Virus record (IMG/VR): IMGVR_UViG_3300010167_000019
Location: 1-64,000 of that record
Length of the DNA: 64,000 nucleotides
Direction: 5' to 3' (one strand)
From: a virus
Lineage: Duplodnaviria > Caudoviricetes
Under the pieces are notes generated by a model that was not told the DNA's origin, searched no databases, and saw only the letters and a program-made list of their open reading frames with translations. Shown piece after piece: positions 25,153 through 30,630 of this stretch. Positions within the stretch are counted from its first letter, which is position 1, and each line of letters opens with the position of its first letter. The position numbers and the translations under genes were made by a program.

Positions 25153-25488
25153 CTACTGTGGCGATGTAATTTCCGTTCTTTCTTCTACTAAATTCTTTTC
25201 ATTGAATTTACGATACTTTTCGCGGATATCATCTTCTACGACTACCTCCACATTGTTATGACTGACAGCATGGATTTGGATACTCTGGTCACCATATCTA
25301 GCCAAGGAGTCTAGGATTTCATTGTATTCCTTCTCTGTGCTACACTTAAAAATCATTTCTTCATAGTCGCCACCTAAGGGATGTTTATCCAAGTATTCTT
25401 TAATCTTAAAATGCATCTCATTCTCATATAATGTATCATCGAAATAAAATGATTCCAATGGATTCCAGGGTGACAATGATAAACTCTG
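25153..25488 (-). CDS. rpoB: Phage RNA polymerase beta N-half, exon 5
   Basis: Splicing gives SSSDPG|QSLSLSPW; the 3' splice site follows ...GAAGATAGAG (omega G). Confidence 0.75.
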   Translation of the reverse strand, partial: QSLSLSPWNPLESFYFDDTLYENEMHFKIKEYLDKHPLGGDYEEMIFKCSTEKEYNEILDSLARYGDQSIQIHAVSHNNVEVVVEDDIREKYRKFNEKNLVEERTEITSPQ

Positions 25489-25949
25489 CTCTATCTTCAT
25501 GTGGCTTGCAACACCACACCGTACTATTCAAGTACTGCTCTAGGCTTTCCCTAGATGTTGAGACTATATCTTCTCTACTACACTGTTACCATGTACATAG
25601 AGCCTCTCGTTTCCAGTTGCCATAATATCCTTTAAAGATATTATCCCTGCAGTATGCATCAGGGTGTACTTCCACTTTACTACGCTGATAGGTCTTTCTC
25701 CATATCGGTAGTGTTTGGAATAGTCGTTGAACCCGTGTCTAGCAATAGACACTTGGCTGCGGATTAAGTAATCTCTAACCTTTTTACTGTATTCCAGCAA
25801 TTACTCTGGACCCTCATGTGTATCACTACCATAAGTTAGTAGTTAGAGCTCTAAACAACTTCCCGCAATTATGAGAGGACCGGCCAACATATCTTCACTA
25901 CCATGGACATGTAATTACAAACTACAGTTTTAGATGATAGCGAACTACA
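25489..25949 (-). mobile_element. Group I intron 4 of RNAP beta (461 nt)
   Basis: P AATTGCGGGAAG, Q AATCCGCAGCCAAG, R GTTCAACGACTA, S AAGATATAGTCT; IGS TTGGCCGG pairs with CCGGU|CAG. Confidence 0.85.
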
Positions 25950-26060
25950 ACCGGGGTCACTAGAACTTGTTTCAGCGATATCGATAGTTGATAGCATGGA
26001 AGGATGTAATAATCTTTGTCTAACCGGAATTCTCTTTTCGTTACTGTTACCCAAACTATT
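25950..26060 (-). CDS. rpoB: Phage RNA polymerase beta N-half, exon 4 (37 aa)
   Basis: NSLG...RLLHPSMLSTIDIAETSSSDPG corresponds to the RpoB RDVHPTHYGRVCPIETPEG region. Confidence 0.85.
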
Positions 26061-26505
26061 CAAAAGTCTTCACATGTATTCGCTACATACATGCAGTTCT
26101 CTTACGAACTTCTCTAGGCTTTCCCTAGAGTTGAGACTATATCACCTAGAAATACTCTGTTACCAAGTAATTCTAGCCCTCCATTTCGATTTAAGGGATT
26201 CTCACCCACCGCAATCGCTTCGGCCCTACTCTACTCACTTCTTCACATAGAGTTTTCTTCTATGCTATGTTTTCGATAGTCGTTGAACATGCCATCTGCT
26301 TGAGACAACATGCTGCGGATTGACCATCTATCTTCAACCTTACTTACTGTACCTATGATGGTTAGTCATAGCCATCATACCATCACTGATATGATTTAGT
26401 AGTTGAAGCTTTAGGCATCCGTAGTTAGAATTAACTACAGATGGAACAATACGTTCCCGTTCCCGTCAATTAAGAGGGTTTAAAGCCCCAATTGTTTATT
26501 CTATT
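26061..26505 (-). mobile_element. Group I intron 3 of RNAP beta (445 nt)
   Basis: TAATTGACGGGAAC, AATCCGCAGC, GTTCAACGACTA, GATATAGTCT; ends TTTTG; IGS ATTGGGGCTTT at 26482-26492. Confidence 0.85.
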
Positions 26506-26508
26506 AGG
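26506..26508 (-). CDS. rpoB: Phage RNA polymerase beta N-half, exon 3: 3-nt micro-exon CCT (Pro)
   Basis: Needed to restore KKG-P-NSLG; both flanking IGS sequences predict exactly these junctions. Confidence 0.8.
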
Positions 26509-28061
26509 CTGTGTCTTCACATGTATTCGCTACATACATGCAGTTCTCAGTACTAACTTGTACATGAACTTCTACATCTCTCGATGTAGTCGAGACTATA
26601 TCTTCCTCATACACTCTATGACCAAATGTATGAAGTCCCTTCGTTTCCCATTGCTCCATGTCCGTCCAAGACATTTGGCCTCCAATCGCTTGAGGGGTAC
26701 TCTACTGACTACGTGATAGGGTATTTACGCCGCTATCGGTAGTTGGTCGATAGTCGTTGAACGTTCCTTCTTTAATTGAAATTTTACCAAAGCGATATAT
26801 TTTCTATTGACTCGATTATCTGGCAAATCGAGCAACGTTACTATTTCCCCAGGCTCACTCAACCCACTGTCCAATAGCTCAATCACCCTACCCCGTAAGT
26901 TATCGGGCCTAGTCTTGCTCTCCGGTTCAGGAATCTCATAATCCCTGGAAATGGACATCCAAGACATACGCTGTTTGATAGAATGGGGTAATGATACAGG
27001 TACGGATAGCAGTCTAGATATTTCTGCCAAGCCTTTACCTTCTTCCAGTAGCTTACAGACAGCATGGATTTGTTCATGGCTGTAGGTGGAAGAAGTTCGT
27101 AAGAATCCCTTTTCACGTGGCATTTCTCCAGCCGCAGGTATATCATACTGGGATGAGATATGTTTCCATTTACCAGCATACTTGATAGATCTAGCCAGAC
27201 CGATTGACACACCAACCTTTTCAGCTGCTCGTTTACAGTTATGACCTCCTTCTAGCAATTTACAAATAGCATGAGCTTGCTCATCTGTGTAAACTGCATT
27301 GGGTCGATCAGTTCCGACTCTAGTAAAGGAGGCATTGTCATAGCAACCCATCTCCATAGCATGTTGTTTATTCTCAGCTGAAGTAGCCCATTCCAAGTTG
27401 CGATACCAGTTGTTAGTCTTGACTCCATCGATGTGGTTGATCTCAGGTTTATTTTCTGGATTAGGTATGAAGGCCTGTCCCACCAATCGATGTACTCTGA
27501 ATGTCCCATATTTTGTTTCTGTACGTAGACTAACTCTTTCATACCCTTGATCAGATAAACTCTTCTTTACTAGGCGACCAAGAGCATTGCTATACACTTC
27601 TCCTACATTGCTGATCATGTAATCCAGTTCCTTGCCTTCAAAGACGATAGGTTTCCATTCGGGGTTTGCAGTGTCCCAGATCCTATCATTGAGCATATCT
27701 TCCATCATACTTTCCATATTCTTACTCATAGTCTCATCCTTATTCTTAGCCATTAATTTCACTCCTTCATCTTTTTTGTTTTTACTTTTACTTTTACTTT
27801 TAGACATCATTCTCACCTCCTTAAAGAAATATATTTTGCCAGATCTCACTTTATAATATATCATCATAAAATATCATCAATTAAAGAAGACTCGCTGCGG
27901 ATTGTCCAATCTCTAACCTTACTTACCCTACCCATGTTAATTACTCATGGCCATTACACTGTCACCAGTGTAACTTGGTAGTTAGAGCTCTAAGGATGTT
28001 CCCGTCACCTTGTAGGAATTAGGCCCTGCTCAGTACAAAGTCATCCAACTTTATACACATT
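26509..28061 (-). mobile_element. Group I intron 2 of RNAP beta (1553 nt) carrying an HNH endonuclease ORF
   Basis: GACGGGAAC, AATCCGCAGC, GTTCAACGACTA, AAGATATAGTCT; IGS AGGGCCT (28021-28027) is exactly complementary to AGGC|CCT. Confidence 0.85.
26725..27810 (-). CDS. Intron-encoded NUMOD4/HNH homing endonuclease with tandem HTH repeats
   Basis: YMISNVGEV, VHRLVGQAFIPNPENKPEINHIDGVKTNN...LEW; SD AGGAGGTGAG supports the ATG at 27810; the C-terminus overlaps the intron R element. Confidence 0.9.
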   Translation of the reverse strand: MMSKSKSKSKNKKDEGVKLMAKNKDETMSKNMESMMEDMLNDRIWDTANPEWKPIVFEGKELDYMISNVGEVYSNALGRLVKKSLSDQGYERVSLRTETKYGTFRVHRLVGQAFIPNPENKPEINHIDGVKTNNWYRNLEWATSAENKQHAMEMGCYDNASFTRVGTDRPNAVYTDEQAHAICKLLEGGHNCKRAAEKVGVSIGLARSIKYAGKWKHISSQYDIPAAGEMPREKGFLRTSSTYSHEQIHAVCKLLEEGKGLAEISRLLSVPVSLPHSIKQRMSWMSISRDYEIPEPESKTRPDNLRGRVIELLDSGLSEPGEIVTLLDLPDNRVNRKYIALVKFQLKKERSTTIDQLPIAA

Positions 28062-28282
28062 GCCTTTCTTCGTTGATTTCCACCGGATCGAGAAGTCCAT
28101 ATCATTGTTAACATCGGCATATCTTAAGATACCTGAACCAAAGATTCTGGAGAGTAAAATGTCATTGGGGAATCGGAAAGCAGAAAGATAATCACGGATA
28201 GTAGCCTTATCACCTAGAGAGACTAAGCGATTGATCCTCTTGCTAACTTCAGCTGTCATCAGAGATCCTACATATTCATTAC
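28062..28282 (-). CDS. rpoB: Phage RNA polymerase beta N-half, exon 2
   Basis: (C)NEYVGSL...WKSTKKG; in frame with exon 1 through the split codon T|GT. Confidence 0.8.
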
Positions 28283-28698
28283 CAAATACCTTCACATACA
28301 TTCGCAACATGCATGCAGTGCACCTAAGCACTTCTCTAGGTCTCCCTAGACGTTGAGACTATATCTTCATCCTACTACTGTGACCATAGTAGTGATGCCT
28401 CTCGTTTCCAGTTACCCCACCTTCAGTTCTTCCAGTGGCCTAGCATTAGCTTCTAGGTGTACTTCCTCTTTACCACTCTAAGGTTTTTCTCCCGTATCGC
28501 AGTGTTAGGAATAGTCGTTGAACGTGTAACTATTTTTCTCCAGATTTAATAGTTACTTCGCTGCGTTTGATGACCCTAGCTCCATAGCTTTTACTATCCC
28601 TGGATCGTTATATCCAGTGCTACACTATCTATCACTAGTAGCTGCAGTGTATGGAGAGTTACAGGGATTCCCCGCAATTATGAGAGAATGGGCAAACT
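28283..28698 (-). mobile_element. Group I intron 1 of RNAP beta (416 nt)
   Basis: AATTGCGGGGAATCC, AAACGCAGCGAAG, GTTCAACGACTA, AAGATATAGTCT; junction U|...G restores KRLR-C-NEY. Confidence 0.8.
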
Positions 28699-29743
28699 AC
28701 CGCAATCGCTTATGCACCATGGAAAGATTATCTTTGGCCCATAGGGTATGATAATTTTGTAAGATCCAGCGAAGCAGATAGTAAATGTTTTGCTTATCAT
28801 AGTCATTGATTTTTAATTCAGCCCGAGTAACATCATCCAATAGGCGATTGAAGAAGATATGCTGATACTCACCTCGTCGTATGGTATTCTTCCCTCCGAC
28901 GATGATCATCCATTCGTCTCGGTTGTCGATATTGTGATAAGCAATTTTGTATTCTTCAAATAGCTTCAACAAGCAACCTGTGATTGAGCGTACGTATATA
29001 AACTCTTCGAATGGTTCTGCTTGCACCGCTACGACGATATTCGACTTCTTATTGCACTCGAAATACAAGTAGCCTTCTTCTCTACTGTAATCATCTTTGG
29101 CTAAGATTTTAATGAAGCGATAGACTTCTAGAAAATTTAGCATCTTGGTAATTGTCAAATGGGAGTAGATCAATAGAACGTTGATGGCATTTTTAAAGAT
29201 TTGAATTTTGTAGATGGGCACTGTATAAGATTGATGATTGACGTCTACTAATTCCTCCTTGAAGGTTTTGACAGAGATGGGCATCAAGGACTTAACAGTC
29301 ACTGCTCCAATGGAAGGGTAGGATAATTTATCTACCAGCTGGAAGAGAATATAGGCTGACTTACCTTTGATCTTGTAGTAGCCATGTTCATCTTGGATGG
29401 GTATGATGATGGGTTTCTTAATATAGTAGACTTTGTAATCACCGGATTTATCATAGGCAGAAATCTCCACATCTAGATAGAGTACACCACATCTAGTCTC
29501 AGCCATATTCTTGATGATCTTATTTTTGTTAGAATTTCTTCTGATGACGTGATCATTGACATTATAGTTTTCCTCATTAGGATCCCATTCGTAACCTAAG
29601 ATCTTGATATTGGGAATGATAGAAAATCCTAAGAAACTCATGTAGACAAACTCATGCAACTCTTTGTCAAACTCTCGGCGCATTAAAGGTAAATTTAAAT
29701 TATCGACAAATTGATTGGGAATGGAATTTAAATACTTGAGCAT
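28699..29743 (-). CDS. rpoB: Phage multisubunit RNA polymerase beta N-half, exon 1 (spliced product ~571 aa)
   Basis: SD AAGGAGG before ATG 29743; IIIPIQDEHGYYKIKGK...FQLVDK and KDNLSMVHKRLR resemble phiKZ/AR9-type beta subunits. Confidence 0.8.
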
Positions 29744-29916: not shown

Positions 29917-30597
29917 TTAGGGAAATAATAGCATGGGCAATTTGCCCATGCTATTATTTGTTTTCTCTTGGTTAAATTCTTGATCTAAGTGGATTCTGGA
30001 TTCAGTTGCTCCTACCTGAGTATTATACTTCGATCCTCTTACGATGGAATAGGGTGTCTTAGCATACTGGGATTTGATAAACCAAACTTGGACAATGCGC
30101 ATATCGGGATAGAGTACAACCGGATAGGCAGACAGATTGGTGATTTGTAGGCTGACTGTTCCTTGGAAGCCAGAATCACATAAGCCACCTGATTCGATAT
30201 GGATAGAGAGTCGAGCAATAGAAGATCGGCCGGCAATAAAACCCATGATACCCTCAGGGATAAATAAATATTCTTCAGTGGTCATCAAGACAAAATCTCC
30301 AGGCTCAATAATATAACAATTCACCAAGTGTTGTGGTTTTTCTCCGGGTTCTCTTAAAATATTGCCTCCACTAAAGCGAGGCGGTTGACGAGGATCGATG
30401 ATGGCTCTACCCTCCTTTGTCTTGTGATTGGGTTGTGGGATACGATAGGATCCTCCTAAAGTTAAATCAACTGAATTGGGTTGCAGCTGATAAGGCTGAA
30501 TCGGTGTACGAACCAGCATACCTCGTTCGATATATTTTTGAATGGCTCGATCACTTAAGATTGGAGAAAATAAATCTTTAAAGAATCTTCCAAACAT
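29917..30597 (-). CDS. dcd: dCTP deaminase
   Basis: LQPNSVDLTLG, GRSSIARL, DSGFQG.V.LQI.N, GSKYNTQVGATESR. Confidence 0.92.
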   Translation of the reverse strand: MFGRFFKDLFSPILSDRAIQKYIERGMLVRTPIQPYQLQPNSVDLTLGGSYRIPQPNHKTKEGRAIIDPRQPPRFSGGNILREPGEKPQHLVNCYIIEPGDFVLMTTEEYLFIPEGIMGFIAGRSSIARLSIHIESGGLCDSGFQGTVSLQITNLSAYPVVLYPDMRIVQVWFIKSQYAKTPYSIVRGSKYNTQVGATESRIHLDQEFNQEKTNNSMGKLPMLLFP

Positions 30598-30630
30598 GAG
30601 TATCCAACCTCCTTAACTTTTTAACTCCTG

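Follow-up and report, generated by a model that had tools for sequence, protein, structure and literature searches.

Results

An RNA polymerase gene with a three-nucleotide exon

The DNA analysed here, a stretch of 64,000 nucleotides (the window; positions 1 to 64,000 of the 80-kb IMG/VR virus record IMGVR_UViG_3300010167_000019), comes from an uncultured AR9-like giant phage. On its minus strand, the N-terminal half of a non-virion RNA polymerase beta subunit of the AR9 type is encoded by a gene that four group I introns interrupt, and the second and third of these introns are separated by a micro-exon of only three nucleotides, CCT. An earlier note on this DNA had drawn attention to this arrangement and had read an ordered splicing pathway from its guide pairings; the strings and positions that it quoted were all found on the minus strand. 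Exon bounds were set by tblastn of an intronless homolog against the window, giving five exons. The features of the gene, in the direction of transcription, are:

28699..29743, minus strand: exon 1, from the ATG at 29743 to ...CGG T (tblastn with the intronless homolog P0008)
28283..28698, minus strand: intron 1, group I, 416 nt, no open reading frame; Rfam RF00028 match of 50.3 bits, at the gathering score
28062..28282, minus strand: exon 2, ending AAG AAA GGC (K-K-G) at 28062
26509..28061, minus strand: intron 2, group I, 1553 nt, at site A (after the Gly codon), ending GAAGACACAG
28021..28027, minus strand: guide of intron 2, AGGGCCU, the exact reverse complement of AGGC plus CCT
26725..27810, minus strand: HNH homing endonuclease gene, 361 amino acids (Pfam HNH_3, 1.7e-8, and NUMOD4, 4.4e-7; PHROG 59, 5e-46)
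26506..26508, minus strand: micro-exon CCT, encoding the Pro of the conserved K-G-P-N motif
26061..26505, minus strand: intron 3, group I, 445 nt, no open reading frame, at site B (after the Pro codon), starting AATAGAA and ending CTTTTG
26482..26492, minus strand: guide of intron 3, ATTGGGGCTTT (RNA AUUGGGGCUUU), from a pairing scan
26513..26548 (intron 2, near its 3' end) and 26066..26101 (intron 3), minus strand: identical 36-nt twin segments, the longest common substring
25950..26060, minus strand: exon 4 (NSLGNSNEKRIPVRQRLLHPSMLSTIDIAETSSSDPG), beginning AAT AGT TTG GGT at 26060
25489..25949, minus strand: intron 4, group I, 461 nt; Rfam 41.4 bits, E 8.5e-8
25153..25488, minus strand: exon 5, extending to the stop codon

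When joined, the five exons form a single 1716-nt frame of 571 amino acids, in which the final T of exon 1 is the first base of a Cys codon and the spliced frame reads KRLRCNEY, as in homologs. The spliced product is 63-70% identical end to end with intronless homologs, and the only alignment gap lies inside exon 1, far from the junctions, with no gap at any of them. Pro residue 424, encoded by the micro-exon, is the sole residue outside every high-scoring segment pair when the intronless homolog is aligned to the window by tblastn. A homolog search with exon 1 returned 257 homologs, dozens of which end prematurely at a few recurrent positions, while 63 are uninterrupted (565-578 amino acids). 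All 63 of these full-length homologs read G-P at the micro-exon junction, and the CCT codon is therefore required. The K-K-G-P-N-S-L-G junction and the RpoB-type motif that the earlier note had recognised are thus borne out by alignment with intronless homologs, and the predicted 571-amino-acid protein must need both introns removed and CCT kept.

The assignment to the N-terminal half of an AR9-type beta subunit relies on homology over most of the length of the protein, including the GP...HPS...DPG block. In Bacillus phage AR9, the beta subunit of the non-virion RNA polymerase (PDB 7S00 chain c) is hit by the family profile over residues 11-484 with an E-value of 6.6e-51, and in that structure SGPQ of AR9 gp105 aligns to KGPN. 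In AR9, PBS1 and other cultured relatives, which are about 28% identical, the gene is uninterrupted (tblastn). Pfam searches with the protein gave no family matches, and scans of single exons were unhelpful. When near-identical DNA was sought in cultured phages, only a 53-nt intron-core match was found, in the lysK intron of Staphylococcus phage K.

Introns 2 and 3 each have a group I core

A search with the Rfam model RF00028 (gathering score 50 bits) that spanned 14 kb gave four group I matches in the gene, between 25538 and 28753, of 50.3, 41.4, 32.3 and 32.2 bits. The match of intron 3 covers the full model (1-253; 32.3 bits, E 4.3e-5) with P1 as CCUAAU/AUUGGG, and the Rfam alignment places the core elements AAUUGACGGG, AAUCCGCAGC, GUUCAACGACUA and GAUAUAGUCU in order, including P3-P8, the guanosine-binding site in P7 and J8/7. 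This intron also has the expected splice signals, namely a U at the last exon position opposite a guide G and a G as its last base (...CUUUUG), and both signals are present in all site-B introns. For intron 2 the Rfam match is confined to the 3' half (26572-26838; 32.2 bits, E 4.8e-5), but the 5' part holds GGUGACGGGAA and CAAUCCGCAGC, the core motifs are 65% identical to those of intron 3, and the last base is again G (...ACACAG). Intron 2 carries its endonuclease gene in a loop flanked by the 5' strand of P7 and the GUUCAACGACUA core motif, and an AGGAGG ribosome-binding sequence precedes the gene. In both introns the guide lies directly upstream of P3, which is the layout of the family. Together, the Rfam matches, the spliced frame and the homologs support the claim of a 3-nt exon CCT between two separate group I introns, and the comparisons made here confirm this layout.

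We considered other ways of drawing the boundaries. The AATAG repeat at the starts of intron 3 and exon 4 would allow a micro-exon of 8 nt (CCTAATAG) that gives the same mRNA, but this version is noncanonical, as it would place a G before the 5' splice site; moreover, in two relatives described below (L006 and L036) only the CCU| boundary (splice sites are marked by a vertical bar) gives a terminal G, and the 8-nt version fails there. Shifted boundaries for intron 2 were rejected as well, none of them preserving both the frame and a terminal G. A twintron was rejected because the 3 nt between the introns are needed as an invariant Pro codon and because relatives have one or the other intron by itself at the corresponding site.

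Each of the twin segments in introns 2 and 3 consists of a hairpin, capped by a GCGA loop, and then UGUGAAGAC; the two are identical over 36 nt despite the roughly 65% identity of the cores, which suggests sequence exchange between the two neighbouring introns. A family-wide version of the element can also be described, consisting of GAGAACUGCA, a hairpin with a GCGA loop, and UGUGAAGAUA, and its hairpin stem covaries.

For introns 1 and 4, the P1 placed by Rfam was discarded, since it falls in coding exon and the protein alignment puts the splice sites elsewhere. The 5' splice site of intron 1 lies about 55 nt downstream of the start of the Rfam match (28699|28698), with an exon-side P1 that apparently consists only of GGU/GCC. 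The guide of intron 4, GCCGG, pairs with CCGGU of exon 4.

The guide of intron 3 reaches across the micro-exon

The pairings can be read directly from the DNA. In the guide of intron 2, GCCU pairs with AGGC of exon 2 (P1) and AGG pairs with CCU of the micro-exon (P10), in agreement with the exact complementarity to AGGC|CCT that had been pointed out before. The guide of intron 3 pairs without a break with AAGGCCCT|AAT, and the earlier count of 11 contiguous pairs, five of them from exon 2, proved right, two of the pairs being G-U. Within this guide, AUU can pair with AAU at the start of the intron (P1) or with AAU of exon 4 (P10), GGG pairs with CCU, and GCUUU pairs with AAGGC of exon 2, so that an exon-side P1 of 8 bp needs exon 2 joined to CCT. 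By our own calculation, the chance of five extra consecutive guide pairs is about 0.007, and the extended match thus exceeds chance.

Using ViennaRNA, we obtained -6.2 kcal/mol for the P1 hairpin of intron 3 with intron 2 present and -13.7 kcal/mol with intron 2 removed. The earlier statement that only three P1 pairs are possible in the precursor was too strong, as the precursor P1 has three pairs on the exon side and three on the intron side. Moving the register by one G (AGCCU/GGGCU) gives five pairs that include the last two bases of intron 2, and the value of -6.2 kcal/mol is that of this shifted register.

Relatives carry introns at the same sites singly or doubly

We compared 14 viral loci, 17 metagenomic loci (the metagenome scan contributed few) and 11 contigs encoding truncated homologs. 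Within four bases of the K-G-P-N codons, the motif that is conserved best, introns were found at three insertion sites:

Site A only (after the Gly codon, GGN), complete: L004, L005 (= L030), L007, L008 (= L009), L011, L024 (= L025), L033, L035, L040
Site A, contig ends early: L032, L041, L042
One base further (GGG C|CC, inside the Pro codon): L013
Site B only (after the Pro codon, CCU), complete: L014, L018, L036, L038
Site B, contig ends early: L037, L039
Both sites with CCT between: the window, L006

About nine single-site relatives thus have the intron after GGN and about four after CCU. The second double arrangement, in L006, is found on an AT-rich contig of 289 kb whose exon 1 is 65% identical to that of the window, and its junction reads ...ATTACG|CCT|AATATGAATTGGGTGGC..., with two separate ribozyme cores. 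When IMG/VR was scanned by pattern for other junctions of this double kind, the contig of L006 was the only genuine match, the other 14 being due to chance. Trees built from the 5' parts and from the 3' parts of the introns were mosaic and had poor resolution, and the closest kin of introns 2 and 3 of the window were not the introns of L006, which weakly suggests that the two double arrangements may have arisen separately.

The site-B introns also inform on the P1 of intron 3. The single intron of L014 and L018, a homolog of intron 3, forms this 8-bp helix too, position -4 having changed in a compensatory manner, and its guide GGGACCUU pairs with AAGGUCCU. Among the site-B introns, the pair at -4 is as follows:

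C-G: window
U-A: L014, L018, L037
G-C: L036
A-U: L039
unpaired: L038, L006

Because the -4 pair varies in this way, the helix extension is a real covarying feature of the family, and in the window it straddles the insertion site of intron 2. The number of exon-side P1 pairs at site B is three in L038, four in L036 and L039, five in L037, and eight in L014 and L018, and three to five such pairs are thus compatible with persistence of an intron in an essential gene. The downstream intron of L006 has no complementarity to exon 2. It forms three pairs after ligation (-4.0 kcal/mol) and five pairs with the terminal CG of the upstream intron (-9.0 kcal/mol), although by our own calculation the two extra pairs could be due to chance (about 0.14).

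Several points weigh against the reading that we favour, namely two complete group I introns with upstream-first splicing as the easier path. Both are below the Rfam gathering score (32 vs 50 bits). Intron 2 lacks the U-G wobble at its 5' splice site, the last exon base being a C that pairs with a guide G (AGGC/GCCU). The energies given above describe secondary structure only, with tertiary contacts and protein cofactors outside the estimate. Lastly, only an 80-kb fragment of this uncultured phage is on record, and there may be a second intact copy of the gene, or the allele may be defective. With respect to the scores, that of intron 3 is below the curated cut-off yet significant for a 14-kb search, and its family neighbour, intron 1, reaches 50.3 bits. 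As for the missing wobble, 7 of the 14 site-A introns examined have a C at -1 (window 28062, L004, L007, L011, L024, L033, L040) and the other 7 a U, in each case opposite G. The C-G pair is therefore a tolerated synonymous third-base state and a trait of the site, not an error in the window. Taking all of this together, we consider it probable that introns 2 and 3 are two independent and complete group I introns of one phage family that occupy neighbouring homing sites.

A few further observations were made on the relatives. In L013 (7795-7815, 8870-8890), the context AAGGGC|CC equals that of L004, but against the reading frame it is displaced by one base. The gene copy of L006 (10183-10475, 11577-11998) also has four introns, one of them at the D-P-G site of intron 4 of the window and another at an FKFP site that is common to many truncated homologs. 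A compact 236-nt group I intron at the Gly site (L005:11369-11604, on the contig also listed as L030; Rfam 63.4 bits) appears to have A rather than G as its last base (...TTTGCCTA|CCGAAC); an upstream G would shift the frame, and the 3' splice site is backed by a 4-bp P10 (CCGA/UCGG). Close upstream of the polymerase gene, L032, L035, L041 and L042 have a gene of the dCTP deaminase/dUTPase family, which in L033/L034 lies further upstream. The window has an open reading frame in the same position:

29917-30612, minus strand: open reading frame in the position of the dCTP deaminase/dUTPase gene of relatives

The presence of this family upstream would fit an AR9/PBS1-like uracil-DNA lifestyle.

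Order of splicing

Splicing itself, as well as its order and efficiency, we infer from the sequence. In the mechanism that we propose, intron 2 would locate its 5' splice site by GCCU/AGGC, with a C-G pair in place of the usual U-G, and would align its 3' exon by AGG/CCU. Intron 3 would use CCU|AAU / AUUGGG with a U-G wobble, and its GCUUU/AAGGC pairing would become available only once intron 2 is gone. Upstream-first splicing would be the favoured path, and is plausible for this phage, because intron 2 is transcribed first and because the P1 of intron 3 gains about 7 kcal/mol upon its removal. The extended guide would most simply be a legacy of intron 3 having once been alone at site B, and the 11-bp match can be seen as an inherited feature that eases the upstream-first path, not as proof of a cascade.

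The two introns might also splice independently and in either order, if the 6-bp P1 (CCU|AAU / AUUGGG) suffices and the GCUUU/AAGGC match is a relic of the solitary intron 3. L038 and L006 manage with three exon-side pairs, and in L014 and L018, whose single introns are the closest homologs, the same helix of 8 bp lies on an exon without an interruption. A precedent is found in placozoan mitochondrial cox1, where a single-nucleotide exon lies between two group IB introns and both half-spliced intermediates were seen by RNA-seq (Osigus et al., 2017; PMC5436844). Nevertheless, a P1 difference of 7 kcal/mol should affect how well the 5' exon stays bound from the first splicing step to the second, and the order of transcription favours removal of intron 2 first, so we regard independent splicing as possible but rather doubtful.

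The earlier note went further in the other direction, proposing that intron 3 can splice efficiently only after removal of intron 2, such that production of the polymerase subunit would depend on two ribozyme reactions in a fixed sequence. Indeed, the eight exon-side P1 pairs exist only once exon 2 is joined to CCU (-13.7 vs -6.2 kcal/mol), and the -4 pairing has been kept by compensatory change relative to L014. However, pairing probably does not impose a strict order, because the family works with three to five exon-side pairs elsewhere, as in the single introns of L036-L039, and the downstream intron of L006 is unpaired to exon 2, with only three pairs after ligation or five with the last two bases of the upstream intron. 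The precursor in the window has its own alternative register of five pairs. Di- and trinucleotides can act as 5' exons for the Tetrahymena ribozyme, which likewise argues against a strict requirement. The placozoan gene, where even an exon of 1 nt gives both partly spliced intermediates (PMC5436844), points the same way. An obligatory cascade thus seems unlikely to us, and of the earlier proposal it is the preference for upstream-first splicing that survives, not its necessity.

A related and equally speculative idea is one of mutual dependence, in which the guide of intron 3 reads the ligated exon 2-CCU, so that the essential polymerase subunit would arise solely by an upstream-first cascade, and the guide of the downstream intron of L006 reads the end of the upstream intron, the order being free or reversed there. 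We do not claim a reversed order for L006, given that its two extra pairs may be accidental, and we think it improbable that this idea holds. If true, it would mean that a 3-nt exon makes the guide recruit whatever lies upstream, and that splicing order is a tunable, evolving trait.

Introns 2 and 3 share the 36-nt 3' segment, so that each core might be able to use the 3' end of the other. Exon skipping is therefore a risk here, and it has been documented for the tandem group I introns of Twort orf142 (23-nt exon) and Coxiella 23S rRNA (34-nt exon) (PMC10136302). Joining of the intron 2 5' site to the intron 3 3' site in a composite unit, to give K-K-G-N-S-L-G without Pro, or a defective allele, is nonetheless very unlikely, since the Pro, whose loss should be harmful, is invariant in 63/63 homologs and in AR9, the AGG of the intron 2 guide pairs with CCU and not with AAU of exon 4 and so favours the correct 3' site, and the same layout persists in the second, distant 289-kb genome of L006.

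Discussion

The arrangement that we favour, two complete group I introns on either side of a 3-nt exon with upstream-first splicing as the preferred path, has its closest parallel in placozoan cox1. There, too, two group I introns at neighbouring sites leave a micro-exon that restores a conserved codon, and the origin proposed is that of an intron inserting beside a resident one. The placozoan case is mitochondrial, has an exon of 1 nt and is backed by RNA-seq, whereas the present one concerns a phage polymerase gene, an exon of 3 nt predicted from sequence, and a guide that reaches across the micro-exon into the previous exon. In Agaricus bisporus cox1, exon 2 is exactly 3 nt long, as confirmed against cDNA, and likewise belongs to an intron-crowded gene (Ferandon et al., 2010; PMC2987802). 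That gene is also mitochondrial, and the adjacent intron iAbi2 is indicated as group II, so it does not have a group I pair (PMC2987802). Exons this short thus have published precedents, and the novelty claimed earlier was overstated.

Among phage and bacterial genes, the nearest cases are introns I2/I3 of Staphylococcus phage Twort orf142 and the pair in Coxiella burnetii 23S rRNA, with exons of 23 and 34 nt, the shortest given there, and observed skipping (PMC10136302). They resemble the present introns in being tandem group I introns around a short exon in a phage or bacterial gene, and the Twort introns are related to each other as well. Exons of 23 and 34 nt can, however, accommodate a normal P1 and P10, whereas the 3 nt in the window force P1 either to extend beyond the exon or to make do with three pairs. 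As for the gene, a group I intron with an HNH endonuclease is known from a jumbo-phage RNA polymerase gene, PhiPA3 gp210 (PMC11620839), and there, as here, a mobile intron occupies a conserved part of a multisubunit RNA polymerase gene of a giant phage; PhiPA3 belongs to another phage lineage, and the abstract of that report describes one intron-encoded endonuclease and mentions no micro-exon. Intron-rich jumbo phages of the gut are known as well (PMC12880540). What is new here is the 3-nt size in a phage, the guide that spans the micro-exon, and the natural set of single- and double-site alleles.

For phage and bacterial genes, we found no exon between two group I introns shorter than the CCT codon, those named in PMC10136302 being of 23 and 34 nt. 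Such exons also matter for annotation, as gene callers truncate or misread polymerase genes of this kind, and dozens of the listed homologs are cut exactly at these sites. The relatives form a natural comparison set, in which the same sites are singly filled in about 13 relatives and doubly filled in two distant genomes, and which also offers guides with three to eight exon-side pairs and a C-G instead of a U-G pair in half of the site-A introns. This set opens the questions of how few 5'-exon bases a natural group I ribozyme needs, how crowding of introns relates to the order in which they are spliced, and how insertion hot spots become filled.

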